A stretch of DNA of 35,601 nt from a virus, in IMG/VR virus record IMGVR_UViG_3300045988_153050, positions 1 through 35,601 of that record; one strand, written 5' to 3'. Shown piece by piece: positions 3,485 to 35,601 of the stretch (positions are counted from its first letter, which is position 1; each line of letters opens with the position of its first letter). The notes beneath the pieces were generated by a model, which saw nothing but the letters and a program-made list of their open reading frames with translations, was not told the origin of the DNA and searched no databases. The translations under genes and the position numbers were made by a program.

Positions 3485-3781
3485 TCAGGCAGCGACAAAC
3501 TCGCCGCTCAAGTTGTCCACGAAGCCCAGCTTGATCTCACGCTTGAGGTTCCATTTGTTGGTGTAGATGCGAGTAGCTACATAAGTACGATTTTTGCCGC
3601 CCTTAGCCCAGTTGTTGGCGGTTACACGGTAGTTCCAGCCGGAATCCTCACCGATAACCTCAGCCTCATTCACGGCCTTGGCCAGTGCCCAGGAAGCCCG
3701 AAGAGCGGTGCTCATGTCAACGTGGGCAGTGCGGCGGATGTTCCAAGCGTTTCTCATAATCTCGGACTTGTTGTACTTCAT
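3485..3781 (-). CDS. Hypothetical protein (98 aa; start refined to MKYNKSEIMRNAW)
   Basis: The ATG at 3781 is preceded by the conserved leader GGAAAGGAAGATCACC. The longer ORF-track start would run through the promoter. Confidence 0.65.
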   Translation of the reverse strand: MKYNKSEIMRNAWNIRRTAHVDMSTALRASWALAKAVNEAEVIGEDSGWNYRVTANNWAKGGKNRTYVATRIYTNKWNLKREIKLGFVDNLSGEFVAA

Positions 3782-3893
3782 GGTGATCTTCCTTTCCGCC
3801 CTCTGGGCTGTCCGTTCCTTTACTGTGATTACATTGTACACCTGTTTGTACAATAATGCAATAGGCAAAGCGTACAAATAAGAGTACGGTAAT
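3782..3893 (-). promoter_or_regulatory. Promoter, operator and leader cassette, copy a (leftward)
   Basis: On the minus strand: TTGCAT (3856-3861), 17 nt, TACAAT (3833-3838). The spacer carries TTGTACAA and there are upstream GTAC..TTGTAC half-sites. The leader has a GCCC/GGGC hairpin and an AAAGGAA RBS. Near-identical to copies b and c. Confidence 0.7.
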
Positions 3894-3929
3894 TTAGGCA
3901 CAACGCCAATAACTTGACAGTCCGGGTGC

Positions 3930-3958
3930 TTGACGATTCGAGCGCCTTATACTATAAT
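3930..3958 (+). promoter_or_regulatory. Near-consensus sigma-70 promoter of the orphan small RNA
   Basis: TTGACG (3930-3935), exactly 17 nt, TATAAT (3953-3958). Confidence 0.7.
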
Positions 3959-3964
3959 AAAAGA

Positions 3965-4040
3965 CGGAACGTACCACTCGAAAATTCCGCTTTCAAACAA
4001 AAGAAAACCCACCGGATTTAGCCGGTGGGTTTTTTCTTTT
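3965..4040 (+). ncRNA. Orphan small RNA of about 70-75 nt (two stem-loops)
   Basis: The predicted start lies a few nt after the -10. First hairpin is CGGAA (3965-3969) with TTCCG (3986-3990), then an A-rich linker and a terminator hairpin. There is no ATG or RBS. Confidence 0.55.
4004..4040 (+). terminator. Rho-independent terminator (A-tract upstream, so potentially bidirectional)
   Basis: CCCACCGG (4008-4015) pairs with CCGGTGGG (4022-4029), followed by tttttt ctttt. Confidence 0.8.
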
Positions 4041-4054
4041 CAGGTTGCACAAAG

Positions 4055-4166
4055 TGTTGTACTTGTTTTTGTACAGTCTGCCTATTGCGTTATTGTACAA
4101 ACTGGTATACAATAAAGGCACAGTAAAGGAAACAGACAGCCCGACAGGGTAGAAAGGAAGATAACC
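4055..4166 (+). promoter_or_regulatory. Promoter, operator and leader cassette, copy b (rightward)
   Basis: TTGCGT (4085-4090), 17 nt, TACAAT (4108-4113). TTGTACAA in the spacer and an upstream TTGTAC..TTGTACA. The leader is as in copies a and c. Confidence 0.7.
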
Positions 4167-4490
4167 ATGAAAAAGACTATTAACGGAAAAACATACAACA
4201 CAGAAACGGCTAGAGAGTTGGCCTGTTGGACGAACACCATCCACAGCAGGAATTTTGATCACTACACGGAGACACTGTACCAGCGTCGTGATGGTAGCTT
4301 GTTTATCCACGGTATCGGGGGGCCGGACAGCAAGTACGCAGTGCGGGTAGGAAACGGTTACTCCGGCGGCCAGGACCTCCGTCCAGTATCTAAGGCGGAA
4401 GCCATTGCATCCGTGCGGGAGTATGCAAACACCAGTGAAATCCCGTCAATCCTGGAAGAAATCGAGGGCACAGAGGCGGTGAACGAATGA
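4167..4490 (+). CDS. Hypothetical protein (107 aa), first gene of the acr-aca-like operon
   Basis: ATG directly after the conserved leader. No motif recognised. ATGA overlap with the downstream HTH gene. Confidence 0.65.
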   Translation: MKKTINGKTYNTETARELACWTNTIHSRNFDHYTETLYQRRDGSLFIHGIGGPDSKYAVRVGNGYSGGQDLRPVSKAEAIASVREYANTSEIPSILEEIEGTEAVNE

Positions 4491-4699
4491 TTACCTACAA
4501 CGGATTCAAGGCGAAGCTCGAAGAGCGAGGGGCCAAATACCGGCTGAGAAAAGCCGGTATCAGCCCGACCATCATAGCAAAAGCGTTGAACGGCACAGGC
4601 GGGTTTGAGACCGTGACCATCGACAAACTCTGTAAACTGCTGGGCTGTCAGCCCGGTGACCTAATGGAATATGTGGACGAAGAAGAGGCCGGGGAGTAA
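4487..4699 (+). CDS. Small HTH DNA-binding protein (XRE/Cro-like, 70 aa); candidate regulator of the TTGTACAA cassettes
   Basis: AGISPTIIAKALNGTGGFETVTIDKLCKLLGCQPGDL fits a helix-turn-helix followed by the LCxxLxCxxxDL tail typical of short XRE proteins. Confidence 0.7.
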   Translation: MITYNGFKAKLEERGAKYRLRKAGISPTIIAKALNGTGGFETVTIDKLCKLLGCQPGDLMEYVDEEEAGE

Positions 4700-4719
4700 T
4701 CCCCGGCCTTTGGCTTTTT
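4686..4719. terminator. Terminator shared by convergent genes
   Basis: AGGCCGGGG (4686-4694) pairs with CCCCGGCCT (4701-4709), followed by ttggcttttta. Confidence 0.7.
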
Positions 4720-5071
4720 ATTTCTCTGTACCTGCTTCCCAGTTCAGTGCCATTTGTGCGATTTCCCGCTGTTCGTTTCCGATAGCCCACAAGATACACA
4801 GGTAGTTTATCGTATCCTTACACTTCTCCAGAAAATCCTCTCGATCATCAAACCGGTTGAGAATCACCATATCGTGTAGGGCTACGAGATGTTTAGCCAT
4901 ATAGCCCCAGCAGGTTTGTGCCGTGGTATCCCCGGTAAACGCTGCGCCCTCCCGGAAATTGTGGAGTGCATCACCCGAATAGCCCGCGTATTTCGCATTT
5001 TTCGCGGCCAGCGTGTCGATGCTGGCGGTTCTGAGTTCGTCCACCAGGGAGTTAAATTTTTTGTTGTCCAT
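4718..5071 (-). CDS. All-alpha NTP-pyrophosphohydrolase-like protein (MazG/DUF1599-like), tentative
   Basis: AGGAGG RBS. Pattern KNAKYAG..GDALHNF..G....W.YMAKHL...DTINYL resembles phage MazG-like or DUF1599 families, recalled from memory. Confidence 0.4.
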   Translation of the reverse strand: MDNKKFNSLVDELRTASIDTLAAKNAKYAGYSGDALHNFREGAAFTGDTTAQTCWGYMAKHLVALHDMVILNRFDDREDFLEKCKDTINYLCILWAIGNEQREIAQMALNWEAGTEK

Positions 5072-5084
5072 GCCGTACCTCCTA

Positions 5085-5417
5085 TTACATATAATCTACT
5101 GCCACATAACCAATGCTATCCACCAGCCCTTTAATGTCCTTCCAGCGTGTGCGGGGCTGACTGAATAGCGCACGGATTTTCTCCACAGTGTCATAGATTT
5201 CCCGGAACGCTCCGGAGTTCAGCCCCAATTCCTCCATCATATAGTCTACGTCTGCCTGTACCATCTCCCGCTCCTGGGCGGATTTCTCTCCCAACTGCAC
5301 ATAAAAGCGGCGGAAATAGTCTGCTGCATCGTCCCCCATGCACTCACGGAGTAGTACCTCAAAATCTTCCGGGCGGTACACCGTGCGTACCCATCCGTTA
5401 ATAGTCAACAGCTCCAC
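5085..5417 (-). CDS. Hypothetical protein (110 aa, GTG start)
   Basis: ORF with a GGAGG RBS (caggaggtgtgagct GTG), within the leftward operon. Confidence 0.55.
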   Translation of the reverse strand: MELLTINGWVRTVYRPEDFEVLLRECMGDDAADYFRRFYVQLGEKSAQEREMVQADVDYMMEELGLNSGAFREIYDTVEKIRALFSQPRTRWKDIKGLVDSIGYVAVDYM

Positions 5418-17293: not shown

Positions 17294-17311
17294 CGTTGTT
17301 CACCTCCCCTG

Positions 17312-17415
17312 CTAACTCTGTGAGACCATAATAACACATAGGGCTAACTATGTCAACCCCAGAAACAAAATTTTTTGAAATAAAAGTTGACACAGTTAGA
17401 GAGCTGTGCTATTAT
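17312..17415. promoter_or_regulatory. Genetic switch: divergent promoters with three CTAACTnTGTnA operators
   Basis: Rightward TTGACA (17387-17392), 17 nt, TATTAT (17410-17415). Leftward TTGACA (complement of 17351-17356), 17 nt, TATTAT (complement of 17328-17333). Operators at 17312-17323, 17344-17355 and inverted at 17388-17399. Confidence 0.7.
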
Positions 17416-17446
17416 ATATGTGTACCCAAGGGAAAGGGGTGAGAGT

Positions 17447-17824
17447 TTGGAAAAACTAAGCGAACGAATAGCACAGACCCGCAAAACGAATAACCTAACG
17501 CAAGAGGCGTTCGGGGCTAGAATCGGCGGGCTATCTAGGAATTACGTCTGGATGCTGGAAAAGGGCGAACGCGTCCCAAGTGATCGAACCATTGCGGACA
17601 TTTGCCGCGAGTTCGACGTGAGCGAGGAATGGTTACGAAATGGTACCGGCCCGATGTTTGTCGAGAAGACCCGCGACGAAGAGCTAGCTGAGTTTTTCGG
17701 CCATGTGCTGGCCCGTGACGATTTCAAGCAGCGGTTACTAGCTGCGCTGTCCCGGCTGGATGAATCAGAGTGGGCCATGCTAGAGCAAGTAGCCCGGAAG
17801 CTGCTGGACGAGCTAAAAGGGTAA
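17447..17824 (+). CDS. XRE-family (CI-like) repressor, 125 aa, TTG start
   Basis: LTQEAFGARIGGLSRNYVWMLEKGERVPS is a classic XRE HTH. The ORF-track start at 17387 is itself the -35 box, so the start is moved to the TTG at 17447 after the AGGGGTGAG RBS. Confidence 0.8.
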   Translation: MEKLSERIAQTRKTNNLTQEAFGARIGGLSRNYVWMLEKGERVPSDRTIADICREFDVSEEWLRNGTGPMFVEKTRDEELAEFFGHVLARDDFKQRLLAALSRLDESEWAMLEQVARKLLDELKG

Positions 17825-18141: not shown

Positions 18142-19215
18142 ATGATAAAACGGAAAGACGGACGCTGGCAGGAACAAATCAAGCTCCCCGGTATGGAGAA
18201 GCCCAAATACTTTTACGGGCGGACACAGCGCGAGGTGCAACGGAAACTAGCCGCGTGGAGCGTAGAGCGAGAGCAGGAGCAGGCGCAGGCTGTACAGCTG
18301 TGTACCATCGTCGAGCAGTGGGCAGAACGGCACAGGGACGAGGTAGAGGCCACGTCATGGGGGAACTATGAACCCGCCGTGCGGGACGTGTTACAGTGGT
18401 TCCAGGGCCGGGAGATAGGGGACATATACCCGGATGAGATCACGGAGTTCTTACAGGCTATCGCGGCCCGTGGATACACCCGTTGGACAGTCCAGCGGCG
18501 GCGCGATGTACTAACTCAGACATGGGACTACGCAATCGGAAAAAGGCTAGTGCGGTACAACGTGGCCCGGCAATCCAAAATGCCCAAGGGCCTACCAGCT
18601 GGGACCAGAGAGCCGCCCACGCCTGAGCAGCTAGCGATGATCGGGGCCGGGTTCCGGCTACCGTTCGGGCTGTTCGCGGCGCTGGAAGGGTATACAGGCA
18701 TGCGCCGGGGAGAGATACTAGCCCTCCAATGGGACGATATTGACCGGGCCGCGGGAGTGATACACGTTCGGCGGGCCGTGCAGTTTATCGGTGAGGCCCC
18801 GCACACCAAGCCGCCCAAAACGGCGCAGGGAGTGCGAGACGTAGTTATTCCTGCCCCGCTGGACGCCCTGCTAGGAGACCGGAAACAGGGACTAGTATTC
18901 CCTGGCCCTACCGGGGAACTGTTACGCCTGAGCCAATTTAAGAGCGCGTGGCGGACGTGGTGCATATCGGTAGGCGTAGGTACACGGGGCCGGGGTACGG
19001 CAGTAACTACCCACCAGCTGAGGCACTTCTATGCAACCGTGCTATATGATGCAGGTGTCGGGGTAAAGGAAATGCAAACGCTGCTAGGGCACTCCGATAT
19101 ACGGACCACGATGAACATATACACCCACATCATGCTAAGCCGCAAGCAGGCTACCGCTGACAGGCTAAACAAGTATTTGTGTCAAAATCCGGTCAGCGGC
19201 GAAAAAGACGAATAA
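18142..19215 (+). CDS. int: Tyrosine recombinase (phage integrase)
   Basis: C-terminal catalytic signature: R (GMRRGE), HQLRH, LLGHSDIRTTMNIYTH. N-terminal SAM-like domain. Confidence 0.9.
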   Translation: MIKRKDGRWQEQIKLPGMEKPKYFYGRTQREVQRKLAAWSVEREQEQAQAVQLCTIVEQWAERHRDEVEATSWGNYEPAVRDVLQWFQGREIGDIYPDEITEFLQAIAARGYTRWTVQRRRDVLTQTWDYAIGKRLVRYNVARQSKMPKGLPAGTREPPTPEQLAMIGAGFRLPFGLFAALEGYTGMRRGEILALQWDDIDRAAGVIHVRRAVQFIGEAPHTKPPKTAQGVRDVVIPAPLDALLGDRKQGLVFPGPTGELLRLSQFKSAWRTWCISVGVGTRGRGTAVTTHQLRHFYATVLYDAGVGVKEMQTLLGHSDIRTTMNIYTHIMLSRKQATADRLNKYLCQNPVSGEKDE

Positions 19216-19275: not shown

Positions 19276-19321
19276 AAATCCCGTGAAACCGTTGAACGCC
19301 AATGGTTTCACGGGATTTTTG
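19276..19321 (+). terminator. Rho-independent terminator after int
   Basis: AAATCCCGTGAAACC (19276-19290) pairs with GGTTTCACGGGATTT (19304-19318), then tt. Confidence 0.75.
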
Positions 19322-19350
19322 CGTAGGTATACGGGGATTCCGAGGTAACA

Positions 19351-19380
19351 GGTTTTAGCATATTTTAGCATGTTTTAGCT
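19351..19380. repeat. Three tandem 10-bp repeats (nnTTTTAGCa)
   Basis: ggttttagca tattttagca tgttttagct, followed by tgtcaaa repeated twice (19391-19408). One helical turn per unit. Confidence 0.7.
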
Positions 19381-19419
19381 GTTATTAGCCTGTCAAATCT
19401 CTGTCAAAGCGCACAGGAA

Positions 19420-19448
19420 ATAGTACACCTGTTTGTACAATGTGTCAA
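19420..19448 (-). promoter_or_regulatory. Strong leftward promoter inside cassette c
   Basis: On the minus strand: TTGACA (complement of 19443-19448), 17 nt, TACTAT (complement of 19420-19425). Confidence 0.6.
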
Positions 19449-19530
19449 TTGCTTTATTGTACAAACAGGTGTACAATGTAGGTACAGTAAAGGAAACGGA
19501 CAGCCCGACAGGGCGGAAAGGAAAATAACT
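19423..19530 (+). promoter_or_regulatory. Promoter, operator and leader cassette, copy c (rightward), with a perfect 19-bp inverted repeat
   Basis: GTACACCTGTTTGTACAAT (19424-19442) and ATTGTACAAACAGGTGTAC (19457-19475). TTGCTT (19449-19454), 17 nt, TACAAT (19472-19477). Conserved leader runs up to the ATG. Confidence 0.7.
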
Positions 19531-19773
19531 ATGAAAAAGAGTGCAGAGACCATGACAAGACAGGCAGAAAGAAGAGTAAGGGCCATGAGCGACAACCTAC
19601 TTCTGGCCGCTTGGGAAAGCACCGAGGACCAGAGAACCAAGGAAAGCGTTATCATTCGCGGGTGGCTGATGGATGAAATCGAGCGTCGGTATCCCGAAGC
19701 GTTTAATGCCTGGCTTGACAACGACGCCTATGATGGAGAACTGAGAGCCTACGTCAACAACAACGCAGAGTGA
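19531..19773 (+). CDS. Hypothetical protein (80 aa)
   Basis: ATG directly after the conserved leader. No recognisable motif. Confidence 0.6.
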   Translation: MKKSAETMTRQAERRVRAMSDNLLLAAWESTEDQRTKESVIIRGWLMDEIERRYPEAFNAWLDNDAYDGELRAYVNNNAE

Positions 19774-19837
19774 CGGCCCACACCGGGCCGGTAATGCGGC
19801 AGGCCGGTCACAAGCCCGGCCAGAAAGGAAAATAGCT

Positions 19838-20086
19838 ATGAAGAAGTTTGAAGGGCTGCTGAGAAGCGAGATTAAGAAGGTTGAGAAGTTCGCGCAGAAA
19901 CGCGACGGCAAGGATTCCAGACTCACCGGCTACGGCTACCATGAGACAGAGGGCGCGATTGACTTCATCACGGTCAGGTGCGAAATCTGCTCCAACGATA
20001 TGCGAGACAGAGAGCGTGACGTTACCCTTTTCGTTTACATCCCGGACCGGCGAAGATCTTTTATCTGTGCGGCACTGAGCCGGTAA
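19838..20086 (+). CDS. Hypothetical protein (82 aa)
   Basis: Preceded by a fourth, partial copy of the leader end (GAAAGGAAAATAGCT, 19823-19837). Confidence 0.6.
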   Translation: MKKFEGLLRSEIKKVEKFAQKRDGKDSRLTGYGYHETEGAIDFITVRCEICSNDMRDRERDVTLFVYIPDRRRSFICAALSR

Positions 20087-20098
20087 CAGCCCAGCAGG

Positions 20099-20165
20099 GC
20101 ACATGAAACGGGGTCGAAGGGTGGGACGAAGCACCCCATTGCAGGCGCATGAAACGGGGTCGAAG
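20099..20165 (+). repeat. Two copies of GC(A/G)CATGAAACGGGGTCGAAG, 46 nt apart
   Basis: 20099-20119 and 20145-20165 differ at one base. Confidence 0.8.
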
Positions 20166-20228
20166 ATTGGAACGATGAACAGGGACAGGAGCCGGGAACA
20201 AGCCGGGTCTGTCCCCGTTCCCTGTTTC

Positions 20229-20483
20229 CTGTTCCATTCCGGTTCCTTCCAGAATCGGGGCATCGTTCCTTTGGTGCCTTGTTCCGGTGTGTTTGTTCCC
20301 TATCGGGTCTGTCGGCAAACCGTTGGCGCTCAACGGTTTTAGCTATTACTGTACCAATAGGAACAATAGGAACAAATAAATAAATAAATAGGTAAATAGG
20401 GCATATAGTATGAATATAGACTAATATACCGCCTTATATAGGGGTTTATATAGAACCCTTGTGCCTTTTGTCCGTTTTGTTCC
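20229..20483. repeat. Dispersed (T)TGTTCC motifs in both orientations around an AT-rich block
   Basis: Direct copies at 20229, 20279, 20293 and 20477; inverted copies (GGAACAA) at 20360 and 20369. AATAGG and aaataaataaataaata tract at 20355-20400. Confidence 0.6.
20317..20341 (+). terminator. Probable terminator of the accessory operon
   Basis: AAACCGTTG (20317-20325) pairs with CAACGGTTT (20331-20339). The GC core CCGTTG/CAACGG is followed by TTTT. Confidence 0.5.
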
Positions 20484-20514
20484 ACCCGGCCCGGACTGGC
20501 CCGGAAGGTCTGGA

Positions 20515-20608
20515 CTGGACTGGTGTGAGTTGGTGTATGAGTTGGTGTATGGGCTGGTCTGGGTTGGTGTACCGGTTGGTGTATGGGATGGACTGGGTTG
20601 GTGTGTGA
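20515..20608. repeat. Iteron-like array with 12-bp period (core GTTGGTGTA)
   Basis: GAGTTGGTGTAT appears twice in perfect tandem (20527-20550), followed by gggctggtctgg, gttggtgtaccg, gttggtgtatgg, gatggactggg and ttggtgtgtga. Confidence 0.8.
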
Positions 20609-20645
20609 TGCTCCAAACTAATTCAATAGTTTGGTACATGAGATT

Positions 20646-20673
20646 TTGTTTACCGTTCACAGTATGGTATAAT
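20646..20673 (+). promoter_or_regulatory. Putative late-operon promoter with extended -10
   Basis: TTGTTT (20646-20651), 16 nt ending in TGg, TATAAT (20668-20673). About 180 nt upstream of the HNH gene. Confidence 0.5.
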
Positions 20674-20856
20674 ATACATGGGTTCCATAGTGTGCAGTCT
20701 CGTGGGATTCTTCCATTTCTATCTCCTCCATTCCTTTACCGGGGCAGGGCCGGGGGGGCCTTGCCCCACATGCGCGGCGGGGTGTAGCCCCTATGGTTGG
20801 TGCAAGTCCAGCGCCGGGCACGATGAACGGGGGAGAGGGTAAGGGTGGTGTGATCT

Positions 20857-35375: not shown

Positions 35376-35601
35376 TAGGGTACCCGCGCCCGGTAAGGCC
35401 AACCGGGTAAAGATTACTCTGGACAATGGGCAGGTGGTAGAGGGTGTGTTGTCCTATGCGGACGATGCCACCCAGGAGGGCAGCGCCTACAACAAGGCAA
35501 ACGTGCTACCGGATGACGTGTGCAACGATCTAGGCATTGACCCGACAACATCCGAGCCGAAGGACGCATTTCGGGCGAACGTGGAGTATACCAAAAAAAG
35601 C
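35368..35601 (+). CDS. N-terminal part of the junction-spanning tail-fibre-region protein (continues at 1-164)
   Basis: ATG at 35368 overlaps the upstream stop. The frame is open to the window end and continues through the terminal repeat. Confidence 0.7.
   Translation, partial: MFDRVPAPGKANRVKITLDNGQVVEGVLSYADDATQEGSAYNKANVLPDDVCNDLGIDPTTSEPKDAFRANVEYTKKS
35483..35601. repeat. Terminal overlap copy 2 (identical to 1-119)
   Basis: Same as copy 1. It lies inside a coding frame, so it is most likely a circular-assembly overlap. Confidence 0.95.

Follow-up and report, generated by a model that had tools for sequence, protein, structure and literature searches.

Organization of the repeated cassettes

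The window, i.e., the whole stretch of 35,601 nucleotides analyzed here, contained three copies of a cassette of approximately 110 bp, designated A (3782-3893, minus strand), B (4055-4166, plus strand, with its parts starting from 4057), and C (19421-19530, plus strand). Alignment and repeat listings placed all three copies where the initial annotation had reported them. The cassettes shared the promoter TTGCNT-17-TACAAT and two operators of the TTGTAC-N8-GTACAA type, which lay 36 bp apart from start to start. The layout, with one operator (O1) overlapping the spacer and the -10 element, was identical in 3/3 copies. The upstream element, previously described as a GTAC-N8-TTGTAC half-site, actually reads GTAC-N8-GTAC (i.e., GTAC-N6-TTGTAC) and is a second full operator (O2) 36 bp away.

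In cassette C, O2 (19421-19440) reads TAGTAC-N8-GTACAA with one mismatch and is centered at about -53.5. The promoter (19449-19477) consists of the -35 element TTGCTT (19449-19454), a 17-nt spacer, and the -10 element TACAAT (19472-19477), and O1 (19457-19476), a perfect TTGTAC-N8-GTACAA palindrome centered at about -17.5, covers the spacer and the -10 element. From the inferred start site, a leader of 47 nt (19484-19530) carries AAAGGAAAC near its 5' end, the hairpin GCCC-GACA-GGGC (19503-19514), and the Shine-Dalgarno (SD) sequence GAAAGGA (19516-19522), and is followed by the ATG at 19531. Cassette A comprises, on the minus strand, an O2 conserved in its GTAC cores only (3889-3870), the -35 element (3861-3856), a perfect O1 (3853-3834), the -10 element (3838-3833), and a leader (3826-3782) with the hairpin GCCC-AGA-GGGC (3808-3798) before the ATG at 3781. 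In cassette B, O2 (4057-4076) and O1 (4093-4112) each have one mismatch, the promoter consists of TTGCGT (4085-4090) and TACAAT (4108-4113), and the leader (4120-4166), which precedes the ATG at 4167, contains the hairpin GCCC-GACA-GGGT (4139-4150) with a G-U closing pair.

With at most one mismatch, the 20-bp palindrome TTGTAC-N8-GTACAA occurred at five sites in the window (3834, 4057, 4093, 19421, and 19457), all inside the three cassettes. Each cassette has this inverted-repeat operator over its promoter, and the rest of the window has none. With up to three mismatches, 22 matches were found, compared with 10.7 ± 2.9 in shuffled sequences.

Identity between the window copies was 38-44% far upstream of the cassettes, 65-70% in the O2 segment, 75-88% in the -35 region, 90-100% in O1 with the -10 element, 43-57% in the 7 nt preceding the predicted start site, 85-89% in the leader, and 35-43% in the initial 60 nt of coding sequence. 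Leader conservation starts exactly at ACAG, 6 nt past the -10 element, and cassette similarity ends at codon 2. These values therefore delimit a bounded conserved block ending at ATG AA(A/G). The downstream genes are unrelated. The -35 elements match the consensus in TTG alone (3/6), which is why a simple promoter scan omits the cassette promoters. This weak -35 may reflect dependence on an activator.

Between cassettes A and B lies a candidate sRNA unit (3930-4040, plus strand), with a promoter TTGACG-17-TATAAT (3930-3958) agreeing with the consensus at 11/12 positions, a predicted transcript of about 3965-4040, and a strong terminator hairpin (4004-4033; fold z -4.5). This locus was found beside a B-type cassette in five lineages, in which the first-stem sequence differs and the pairing is kept. 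An action of the sRNA on the leader was rejected, as the RNAduplex energies of four variants against their cognate leaders did not consistently surpass those of shuffled sequences (z from +1.3 to -2.4), with p below 0.05 in 2/11 cases. The conserved loop ACCACTCGAA had no complementary site in the window.

Cargo genes, operon ends, and ribozymes

The A operon encodes, on the minus strand, proteins of 98 aa (3781-3485), of which the N-terminal 35 residues match phrog_28198, and 86 aa (3470-3210). On the plus strand, cassette B is followed by a gene for a 107-aa protein without a family match (4167-4490), whose homologs are all unnamed and whose position is hypervariable in relatives. The last gene of this operon encodes a 70-aa HTH_26 protein (4487-4699, plus strand; Pfam HTH_26, E 6.6e-12). 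The C operon, also on the plus strand, starts with a gene for an 80-aa protein without a family match (19531-19773), replaced by other genes in relatives, and continues with a gene for an 82-aa protein (19838-20086), which all related lineages retain, some of them as a fusion with the upstream gene. Neither Pfam nor PHROG assigned a function to any cargo protein of the window or its relatives, and no known anti-CRISPR or anti-defence gene was found by these scans.

A full-length twister-P5 self-cleaving ribozyme (19764-19819, plus strand) was identified between the 80-aa and 82-aa genes of the C operon, with its 3' end abutting AGAAAGGAAAATAGCTATG (Rfam RF02684; score 63.9 bits, gathering score 37.6; match to positions 1-58 of the 58-position model). 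The initial annotation had overlooked the ribozyme and taken its Shine-Dalgarno 3' flank for a fourth, partial cassette copy before 19838. Homologous twister-P5 sites were present in seven relatives (L007, L008, L052, L154, L156, L159, and L183), and twister-P5 and hammerhead II ribozymes occupied equivalent intercistronic positions in the window and its relatives. A fifth copy, consisting of the hairpin only (GCCC-AGCA-GGGC after ACA; 20089-20100, plus strand), lies directly 3' of the stop codon of the 82-aa gene.

A bidirectional terminator (4684-4711, both strands) is common to the B operon and the convergent early (replication) operon, and the same layout was found in L052 and L185. The probable end of the C operon is a terminator-like hairpin (20317-20345, plus strand), AAACCGTTG-GCGCT-CAACGGTTT followed by TTTAGC; a second terminator-like site lies at 20437-20473, and a hairpin similar to the first follows the integrase gene (19286-19308). 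The 23-nt inverted repeat 19286-19308/20317-20339 is better explained by two similar palindromic terminator hairpins than by the borders of an invertible or mobile segment.

These positions bear on whether cassette C could be a late (morphogenesis) promoter, with HTH_26 as a late-gene repressor or timer and the A and B operons co-expressed late. The cassette lies between the integrase gene and the genes for HNH, the small and large terminase, portal, and onward on the same strand, and in L052 it is likewise upstream of the terminase genes. Moreover, the HTH gene and the end of the early operon converge in every case, so that early transcription could hinder repressor expression and time late onset. 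However, the hairpins at 20317-20345 and 20437-20473 and a 770-nt non-coding region part the small C genes from HNH, and this region holds its own TG-extended -10 promoter-like site near 20647-20675. Furthermore, the same cassette in L159 and L160 drives small accessory genes alone, with no terminase genes downstream, and L052 encodes a separate sigma/RinA-like candidate late activator of 135 aa, of which no homolog was found in the window. A late role is thus unlikely, and the operon behind cassette C is probably a short accessory one, terminating at the terminator-like hairpins before the packaging genes, and not a large cargo operon.

Exchange of operators, regulators, and cargo among relatives

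In every relative, TTGTAC operators were accompanied by a 70-aa HTH_26 protein, encoded either at the end of the B operon or divergently beside the operators. Copies with 97-100% identity close the B-type operon in four related contigs, as does a 79% homolog in L185, which has three cassettes. In L007/L052, a 48% homolog is divergent and directly beside a three-operator TTGTAC cassette. The B-type O1 sites had 1, 1, 0, and 3 mismatches, and the A- and C-type O1 sites had none in 8/8 cases.

The promoter/leader scaffold bore at least 10 other operator sequences in relatives, each with its own adjacent HTH_26 or RHH-like protein. For example, the -35, -10, and leader elements were combined with TACGTTNNAACGTA, TACGGTAATACGGTA, ATGAGTTAACTCAT, or CATGGTTTAACCATG, and each type had its own divergent small protein. 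A profile of four of these proteins weakly matched the RHH proteins AvtR (E 0.007), omega, Arc, and ParG, as well as SvtR and PutA, and a Pfam search at E up to 0.05 gave one TacA1-like match (E 0.015) and none for the others. Pairing of operator type and adjacent regulator was also traced for four types in a low-GC phage family. There, two different HTH_26 proteins accompanied the ACATTAATAAATAATG palindrome, a distinct RHH-like protein went with each of the remaining three types, and 15 loci with the same regulator had the same operator.

The cargo was exchanged as well. A 75-aa MSIHEAI gene and an MK(K/Q)FEIGKTYTM gene were each found behind three operator types, and one operator type preceded at least three different first genes. 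Since first genes reassort behind differing operator types, the leader acts as a recombination junction. Close relatives show an insertion/deletion polymorphism at cassette A, which three of them lack together with its cargo. The search of relatives proposed by the initial annotation thus found the cassette flanking variable cargo, and its idea of a recombination handle is borne out by the leader, where cargo and operator type reassort. Judged from these arrangements, the operator/regulator pair and the conserved hairpin-SD leader appear to be two separable units.

A contig scan with the pattern ACAGTAAAGGAA-N2-6-GACAGCC was swamped by unrelated Blautia coding sequence (ACAGTAAAGGAAATGACAGCCACC), and L052 was its sole true hit. 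Among deposited phages, no close annotated relative was found; the matches were limited to a terminase 65% identical to that of Geobacillus phage GBSV1 and to short stretches of methyltransferase similarity with phages of gut Oscillospiraceae and Ruminococcus. The phage is a temperate gut phage, and its host is presumably a gut member of the Clostridia.

A comparable shuffling is known for the promoter-early stem-loops (PeSLs) of T4-type phages, which are mobile regulatory cassettes of a sigma-70-like promoter and a stem-loop (Arbiol et al. 2010, PMC2839356; Comeau et al. 2014, PMC4122927). In both cases, repeated short cassettes flank non-essential or variable ORFans and mark the boundaries of indels and replacements, and inter-cassette recombination shuffles genes. 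In contrast, the PeSL stem-loop is a transcription terminator, whereas the hairpin described here has 4 bp (about -6 to -8 kcal/mol) and no U tract, lies inside the leader by the RBS, and was missing from the terminator scan output. PeSLs also lack repressor operators, and their hosts are enterobacteria. The cassettes could nevertheless be selfish or neutral mobile promoter cassettes of this type, and their similarity would then reflect recent recombination or gene conversion instead of shared regulation. The indel polymorphism of cassette A with its cargo, the reassortment at the leader, and the similar behavior of PeSLs (PMC2839356) all fit such an origin. However, in every copy the operator palindromes hold fixed positions relative to the -10 and -35 elements, while sequence drifts in their N8 centre and in the 7 nt ahead of the start site. 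The promoter of the repressor itself also departs systematically from the others in operator quality, and the hairpin is not a terminator. An origin of this kind, to the exclusion of shared regulation, is decidedly unlikely; it is compatible with shared regulation and hence no true alternative to it.

The leader as a proposed RNA element

The leader, in which a GCCC-loop-GGGC hairpin adjoins the Shine-Dalgarno sequence, remained recognizable behind unrelated operators in relatives. Operator and leader do not form the single unit that the initial annotation had assumed, as the leader persists while operators and regulators swap, and this persistence argues for a role of its own at the RNA level. 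The hairpin-SD leader was conserved and widespread in phage contigs, and promoter-less copies were found between genes. Among 43 unique contexts of the motif ACAGCCC-loop-GGGC-N-GA-N-AGGA, 39 were followed, at a distance of 4-11 nt, by an ATG starting an ORF of 40 codons or more, compared with 4% at random positions.

The hairpin is the sole structure in the leader fold, and its energy was like that of shuffled sequences (z -0.2 to -1.5). By-eye inspection revealed stem variants in which pairing is kept (GCC/GGC, GCCCC/GGGGC, GCCCA/TGGGC, GCCAC/GTGGC, GGGGCGGC/GCCGCCCC, CCCC/GGGG, and U-G wobbles) and loops that are free in sequence. These variants are what supports the structure, since formal covariation was absent among 14 promoter-linked leaders and weak, with one double-sided change, among 90 distinct covariance-model hits. 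Most stems were invariant GCCC/GGGC, and sequence-specific recognition explains this invariance equally well.

The leader had no match in Rfam at the gathering score, and the E-value mode returned sub-threshold unrelated families located off the leader; a known RNA family or a degenerate ribozyme was thus rejected, and the element has no matching Rfam family. The CGGACAGCCCG segment of the leader resembles the twister 3' segment CGGUCACAAGCCCGG, and a twister/hairpin chimera was observed at L183 3292-3332.

We tentatively propose, as one possibility among others, that the leader contains a widespread cis-acting RNA element, in which ACAG is followed by a short GC hairpin of unconstrained loop sequence, by (A/G)GAAAGGA, and by the start codon, and that it is functionally interchangeable with twister and hammerhead ribozymes in accessory operons of gut Firmicutes phages. 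The hairpin and the ribozymes would produce, or imitate, a processed and structured 5' terminus immediately ahead of the ribosome-binding site, so that every small gene would become a portable unit with autonomous expression. A host endoribonuclease or another dedicated factor may be needed for the hairpin version.

Alternatively, the hairpin could be a second, RNA-level site of the same regulator, which would then repress translation too, in a dual DNA and RNA control as for Aca2/Aca1. The arrangement is indeed like that of published Aca operons, with a DNA motif over the promoter, an RNA hairpin near the start site and RBS, and intergenic copies (PMC13551039). However, neither the hairpin nor its flanks change across at least 10 unrelated operator types, under both HTH_26 and RHH-like regulators, and the hairpin sequence is unlike the TTGTAC operator. 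Because the hairpin is, in contrast to Aca systems, independent of regulator type, it is probably not the regulator's RNA site, and dual control by one protein is highly improbable.

Candidate regulators of the three operons

The initial annotation had suggested that one regulator controls at least three operons and named both the 70-aa HTH protein and the CI-like repressor as possible binders. Comparative evidence indicates that a single small DNA-binding protein is most likely, and it favors the HTH_26 protein, a proposed repressor acting at O1 and O2 of all cassettes, over the CI-like repressor. The HTH_26 protein is a small DNA-binding candidate regulator encoded in one of the operons that it would control. 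Its AlphaFold2 model, built from a 7-sequence alignment, had a pLDDT of 49, which was too poor for a fold search.

If the CI-like repressor (17447-17824) bound the TTGTAC palindromes, the operons would belong to the main immunity regulon, silent in the lysogen and freed by CI inactivation. This protein is an XRE-type HTH repressor adjoining the integrase gene and is 97-98% identical in two relatives that also bear TTGTAC cassettes, and single immunity repressors with dispersed operators occur in other phages, such as P1 C1 and mycobacteriophage L5 gp71. However, the switch region between CI and the early operon (17294-17446) has no TTGTAC-N8-GTACAA and contains three copies of CTAACTNTGT instead. 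L007/L052 have TTGTAC operators and an adjacent HTH_26 homolog, and the CI homolog is absent from the 14.8 kb compared. In other lineages, the operator type changes along with the adjacent small regulator. The switch region and the L007/L052 lineage in particular disfavor the CI-like repressor, to which we assign very little probability as the binder. A host LexA-type box was rejected by sequence inspection, as such boxes read CTGT-N8-ACAG or GAAC-N4-GTTC and the site is TTGT-N12-ACAA.

Comparison with known systems

Anti-CRISPR-associated (Aca) autorepressor operons include cases of multi-operon control and of the RHH regulator Aca14 (Feussner et al. 2026, PMC13551039; Birkholz et al. 2019, PMC6765145; Shehreen et al. 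2022, PMC9410906). Their regulators recognize a DNA inverted repeat over the promoter, often with a second one upstream, and an RNA hairpin just past the transcription start. Motifs also occur in intergenic regions, up to three neighbouring operons are controlled, and RHH proteins substitute for HTH proteins (PMC13551039). The cassettes share with these systems a strong promoter with an inverted-repeat operator over the -10 element and spacer and a second site upstream, a small HTH regulator encoded last in an operon of small hypervariable genes, a motif before up to three operons, hairpins in the 5' UTR and between genes, and replacement of HTH by RHH proteins. They differ in that Pfam and PHROG scans of the phage gave no known Acr or other anti-defence gene, the HTH_26 regulator has no detectable sequence similarity to solved Aca proteins (PDB sequence search, E up to 1), the third operon is not adjacent and lies 15 kb away by the integrase/attP end, and self-cleaving ribozymes sit within the operons.

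The start-associated sequences (SAS) and extended SAS of Cluster K mycobacteriophages have a presumed translational or regulatory function (Pope et al. 2011, PMC3203893). Both the SAS and the leader are conserved RBS-containing sequences immediately upstream of the start codons of a gene subset, and about half of the SAS are accompanied by an upstream imperfect inverted repeat. However, SAS have another sequence, occur in phages of another host phylum at no fewer than 10 copies per genome, and lack a defined promoter/operator architecture or cognate regulator.

Lambdoid immunity regions combine PL/PR operators with nut sites (boxA/boxB), and P22 immI comprises Mnt/Arc, Pant, and sar RNA. Similar to the cassettes, lambdoid phages have divergent promoters with related operators, swaps of operator/repressor specificity with a conserved downstream leader, and a small hairpin just past the promoter, and P22 encodes a small RNA and RHH proteins in a secondary repressor region. 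The GC stem, whose G-N-N-A loop lies just past divergent promoters under repressor control, bears a resemblance, and no more, to lambda nut; Pfam scans of the neighbouring genes revealed no evident N-like protein, and no boxA was evident. Unlike in these systems, the hairpin described here abuts the SD and is not in a long leader, and the small RNA is not antisense to an operon. Insulators and 5' stabilisers, such as the synthetic RiboJ and the STAB-SD and 5' stem-loops of Bacillus, provide a functional analogy only, namely a ribozyme or hairpin directly before the RBS and an SD-like sequence near the 5' end.

Proposed regulation and its implications

Taken together, the layout of the cassettes, the co-occurrence of regulator and operator, and the reassortment among relatives suggest that the window probably encodes an Aca-like autorepressor regulon, in which three small accessory, possibly anti-defence operons with a portable leader would be controlled by the HTH_26 protein. 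The three cassettes would be host sigma-A-type promoters, and an HTH_26 dimer would bind TTGTAC-N8-GTACAA and repress all of them, with O1 over the spacer and -10 element occluding RNA polymerase and the second operator 36 bp upstream. As the last gene of the B operon, the repressor would regulate itself. On entry into a repressor-free cell, all three operons would fire; as the HTH protein builds up, A and C, with their perfect O1, would be shut first, and B, which has the weakest operators, would come to rest at a low, constant level, also in the prophage. By analogy with Aca control of several neighbouring anti-defence operons, early accessory or anti-defence functions are the most likely ones for the small, unrelated cargo genes.

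In the same model, the leader is a separate, portable element that combines an unstructured, purine-rich 5' part carrying an SD-like AAAGGA with a short GC hairpin 1-2 nt before the true SD. It would protect the 5' end of the mRNA and let any gene behind it start translation equally strongly, whatever the context; at junctions inside operons, self-cleaving ribozymes would take over this task. Because its sequence is shared across cassettes and across phages, the leader also serves as a homologous-recombination junction for cargo and operator specificity. Several points count against the model. The -35 elements are weak, the cargo proteins match no characterised family, the HTH protein is unlike solved Aca proteins in sequence, and covariation in the hairpin is weak. 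Moreover, the distances between half-site centres (14 bp) and between operators (36 bp) are not whole helical turns, and the model does not account for the lifting of repression after prophage induction.

If this model holds, Aca-type multi-operon control would extend to HTH_26 proteins and to a dispersed regulon with one operon 15 kb away, and the cassettes would offer a clear natural case of repressor/operator specificity being exchanged modularly on a fixed promoter/leader scaffold. Self-cleaving ribozymes would be given a defined slot, at small-gene junctions directly before the RBS, and their long-debated biological role in phages would become testable. If the leader also contains the RNA element tentatively proposed above, it would, together with a scaffold that takes at least 10 operator/regulator pairs, represent a natural plug-and-play expression system for phage counter-defence genes. 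To our knowledge, almost no anti-defence genes of Clostridia phages have been described. The combination of an operator-bearing promoter with a hairpin-SD leader or ribozyme would be a signature of early accessory, probably counter-defence genes, and its occurrence in many uncultured gut relatives would allow it to be used for mining the anti-defence genes of Clostridia phages.

Cassette structure and genome setting

Alignment and independent repeat detection (repeats D2, I1, I2, I4 and I5) confirmed three copies of a promoter, operator and leader cassette at the positions reported in the initial annotation, namely cassettes A (3782-3893, minus strand), B (4055-4166, plus strand) and C (19423-19530, plus strand; from 19421 with the whole of O2). 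In cassette C, whose set of parts recurs in the other two copies, operator O2 (19421-19440) is followed by the -35 hexamer TTGCTT (19449-19454), operator O1 (19457-19476), which overlaps the 17-nt spacer and the -10, the -10 hexamer TACAAT itself (19472-19477), and, beyond a variable stretch of 6-7 nt, a conserved leader running from ACAG at 19484 to the ATG at 19531, all on the plus strand. O1 and O2 are variants of one 20-bp palindrome, TTGTAC-N8-GTACAA, lying 36 bp apart in all three copies, and a scan of the window found this site with at most one mismatch only inside the cassettes. Identity between copies is 38-44% far upstream, 65-70% in O2, 75-88% in the -35 region, 90-100% in O1, 43-57% just before the start site, 85-89% in the leader, and 35-43% in the first 60 coding bases, and the downstream proteins are mutually unrelated. 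Since coding-sequence identity is low and the conserved block is bounded, the copies are not a duplication taking in coding sequence. The cassette is a real, non-random regulatory element. Transcription would start at 19484 (C), 4120 (B), and 3826 (A), because sequence conservation resumes 6 nt beyond the -10.

With positions 1-119 repeated at 35483-35601, the window represents the whole genome, about 35.48 kb, of a temperate siphovirus-like phage, and no close annotated relative was found by database comparison. The plus strand encodes a CI-like repressor (17447-17824), an integrase (18142-19215), and the genes from HNH, small terminase, large terminase, and portal to lysis (20857 across the ends to 3075). 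The divergent early/replication operon extends on the minus strand from 17293 down to 4718 (methyltransferase, exonuclease, DNA polymerase, primase, SNF2, ThyX-like, and dCTP deaminase genes). Additionally, a 270-aa protein encoded downstream of the tail genes (164-976) is extremely glycine-rich with GGGGG runs and is probably structural, either a tail fibre or a collagen-like protein.

Operators and their probable regulators

Viral contigs were scanned for patterns and retrieved through protein anchors, and contigs that encode homologs were looked up, which together yielded many related loci. Every retrieved locus bearing TTGTAC operators encodes HTH_26, the 70-aa protein of window positions 4487-4699. 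It is 97-100% identical and last in a B-type operon in four contigs, 79% identical in contig L185, which carries three cassettes around the sRNA locus, and 48% identical in contigs L007 and L052, where its gene diverges from a three-operator cassette driving a 75-aa gene, a twister ribozyme, and a homolog of the 82-aa gene of the C operon. More distant phages carry other operators (TACGTTNNAACGTA, TACGGTAATACGGTA, ATGAGTTAACTCAT or CATGGTTTAACCATG) on the same -35/-10 scaffold with a homologous leader, each type being paired with its own divergent small protein, which may be RHH-like. In a low-GC contig family (roughly 45-85 kb), the promoter is the consensus TTGACA-17-TATAAT, the homologous leader reads AGTTAAAGAAAAAC...ACAGCCCCAGGAGGGCGGACAGGAGG, and no fewer than six additional operator types occur. 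The adjacent regulator was recovered for four of these: a palindromic type is accompanied by two different HTH_26 proteins and three others by an RHH-like protein of their own, and the same regulator goes with the same operator at 15 loci of this family. The simplest reading of these pairings is that the adjacent small protein binds the cognate operator, which would be HTH_26 in the window.

The initial annotation had named both HTH_26 and the CI-like repressor as candidate binders; HTH_26 is the likely one, as it accompanies TTGTAC loci, and CI is disfavoured by the absence of a TTGTAC site from the switch region between its gene and the early operon (17294-17446). This region instead contains CTAACTNTGT three times (two direct, one inverted) and the repressor promoter TTGACA-17-TATTAT, whose -35 hexamer had been listed as an ORF start at 17387; the repressor likely starts at the TTG at 17447.

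A promoter-like site, TTGACA-17-TACTAT (10/12), overlaps O2 on the minus strand (19448-19420) and is directed away from cassette C. The HTH_26 gene of L052 is transcribed divergently at the matching position, and nothing plausible is encoded downstream of this site in the window, where it may be a relic or the source of an antisense transcript towards the integrase gene.

O1 is imperfect in the B-type cassettes of three of four lineages (degenerate in L185) and perfect in all eight A- and C-type sites. All layouts observed have the HTH gene converging on the 3' end of the early operon, and the two share a bidirectional terminator. In the mechanism proposed, with which the O1 pattern is consistent, HTH_26 on O1 would cover the -10 and spacer and, with O2 assisting, repress all three promoters, and its production from cassette B would limit its own synthesis. 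Because O1 is imperfect in B-type and perfect in A- and C-type cassettes, the targets would be silenced at repressor levels still permitting some B expression. When a phage genome enters a cell that lacks the repressor, all three operons would be expressed in a burst and then shut off. More speculatively, the convergent arrangement with its common terminator could couple repressor supply to early transcription.

Leader element, ribozymes and other RNAs

Operator and leader form one cassette in the three window copies, as the initial annotation described; this unit does not hold in relatives, where a homologous leader is kept behind all operator types found, indicating that the leader is a separate RNA element independent of the operator. 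The motif ACAGCCC-loop-GGGC-N-GA-N-AGGA was found in 105 stretches of viral contigs. An ATG that starts an ORF of 40 codons or more follows at 4-11 nt in 39 of the 43 unique contexts (4% at random positions), an enrichment explained in part simply by the Shine-Dalgarno sequence. Fourteen of the 43 contexts lie just downstream of a promoter-like site, and many others are 3' of stop codons and therefore intercistronic; a hairpin-only copy in the window (20089-20100, plus strand) lies 3' of the 82-aa gene stop. The 4-bp hairpin is the sole structure predicted in the leader and is not significant by itself. A covariance model built from 41 instances recovered copies whose stems vary with pairing kept (GCC/GGC, GCCCC/GGGGC, GCCCA/TGGGC, GCCCG/CGGGC, GCCAC/GTGGC, GGGGCGGC/GCCGCCCC, CCCC/GGGG, and U-G wobbles) around loops of 3-6 nt of any sequence. 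Formal covariation statistics are weak, and the structure is likely real.

The supposed fourth partial copy before 19838 is the ribosome-binding sequence flanking a twister-P5 ribozyme. This ribozyme is full-length (19764-19819, plus strand) and lies between two small genes of the C operon; it overlaps the upstream stop codon and ends 18 nt before the next ATG. Equivalent junctions in related contigs hold one or two twisters and/or hammerhead II (L007, L008, L052, L154, L156, L159, and L183) or hammerhead ribozymes (L176, L182, and L183), and the twister-P5 and hammerhead II of relatives directly precede a GAAAGGA ribosome-binding site in the same operons. Three features, namely the SD-like AAAGGA near the 5' end, the position of the hairpin against the true Shine-Dalgarno, and the apparent interchange with ribozymes, suggest that the leader would protect the 5' end and provide translation starts that are uniform and insulated.

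At L183 3253-3332, the twister-P5 3' strand continues into a leader-type hairpin (CCGGTCACAAGCCCGACAGGGCGGAAAGG), and the leader segment CGGACAGCCCG resembles CGGUCACAAGCCCGG, a conserved twister 3' segment; twister and leader hairpin may be linked by evolution or recombination. Rfam searches also identified two skipping-rope RNAs in L007 (6238-6464) and gut-2 RNA adjoining a tRNA in L176 (4237-4545) and L183 (771-1079).

A candidate sRNA of about 75 nt (3930-4040, plus strand) has a near-consensus promoter and a strong terminator, and its locus is kept beside the B-type cassette in five lineages. Its first stem varies by lineage (CGGAA/UUCCG, GGAC/GUCC, or GGAGA/UCUCC) around a conserved loop, ACCACUC(G)AA. 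A search of the phage found no target, and sRNA-leader pairing was unsupported.

Cargo exchange and the C operon

Among close relatives with the same operator, the first C gene may be a member of the 80-aa family, a 185-aa fusion, or a 75-aa gene, and the first B genes encode 107, 65+127, 120, or 67 aa; the first A genes of close relatives encode 98 and 167 aa, with the N-terminus alone in common. One first gene was also found behind different operator types. These replacements show that cargo is exchanged at the leader, and comparative genomics gives good support to the initial proposal of one regulator controlling several cargo operons through a cassette that flanks variable cargo and serves as a recombination handle. 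Cassette A and its cargo are wholly missing in three close relatives, where the sRNA locus and cassette B come directly after the lysin gene. The close relative L006 has a 153-aa gene between cassettes A and B (4871-5332), absent from the window, that is convergent with the sRNA and shares its terminator; weak Pfam matches of its product suggest that the N-terminus is AP2-like and the C-terminus RHH-like, with a zinc ribbon as well. At L208 5482-5661 and about 30 similar low-GC loci, the cassette precedes a gene for a very acidic 59-aa protein with a C-terminal glutamate run, reminiscent of DNA-mimic anti-restriction proteins.

Between the small C genes and HNH, about 770 nt are non-coding (20090-20856), and two hairpins there resemble terminators; therefore, cassette C most likely drives a short operon and not the morphogenesis genes. 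These hairpins, the twister, the hairpin-only copy, and the CI-switch repeat had been missed initially. The non-coding region contains a pair of 37-nt direct repeats at 20098-20134 and 20144-20180, GGTTGGTGTA-like repeats in tandem at 20516-20583, AT-rich sequence, a promoter-like site with a TG-extended -10 (about 20647-20675), and, next to HNH, GC-rich sequence. No Rfam family matches this region, which might hold a late promoter, an origin or a cos/pac site, or else encode an unknown RNA. Cassette C and its genes lie between two similar palindromic hairpins (AAACCGTTG...CAAYGGTTT) at 19286-19308 and 20317-20339, and TTTTAGC occurs three times 3' of the integrase gene (19349-19385) and once 3' of the second hairpin. 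These elements could be integrase arm sites (attP) or cassette-insertion footprints.

Comparison with known systems

The closest known system is Aca-type control of anti-defence operons, whose architecture the window matches. In Aca operons the promoter is covered by an inverted repeat, often joined by another one further upstream, and transcription begins 10-15 nt downstream; the 5' UTR opens with an RNA hairpin, and motifs also lie between genes. One regulator governs up to three neighbouring operons, and in Aca14 an RHH regulator replaces the usual HTH (PMC13551039). Unlike these operons, the window regulon is dispersed, has HTH_26 as its regulator, keeps its RNA hairpin unchanged when the regulator changes, and has ribozymes embedded in its operons. 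A PDB sequence search with HTH_26 at E up to 1 found no Aca protein, and Pfam and PHROG searches gave the cargo of the window and its relatives no match to a known anti-defence gene. PeSL cassettes (PMC2839356) share with the window the idea of a mobile promoter cassette, and mycobacteriophage SAS/ESAS (PMC3203893) that of a start-associated sequence, but neither shares its anatomy. Of most interest is the hairpin-SD element, with its apparent equivalence to self-cleaving ribozymes. As for the window regulon, it is best presented as one that works in the manner of Aca regulons and not as a member of that group.
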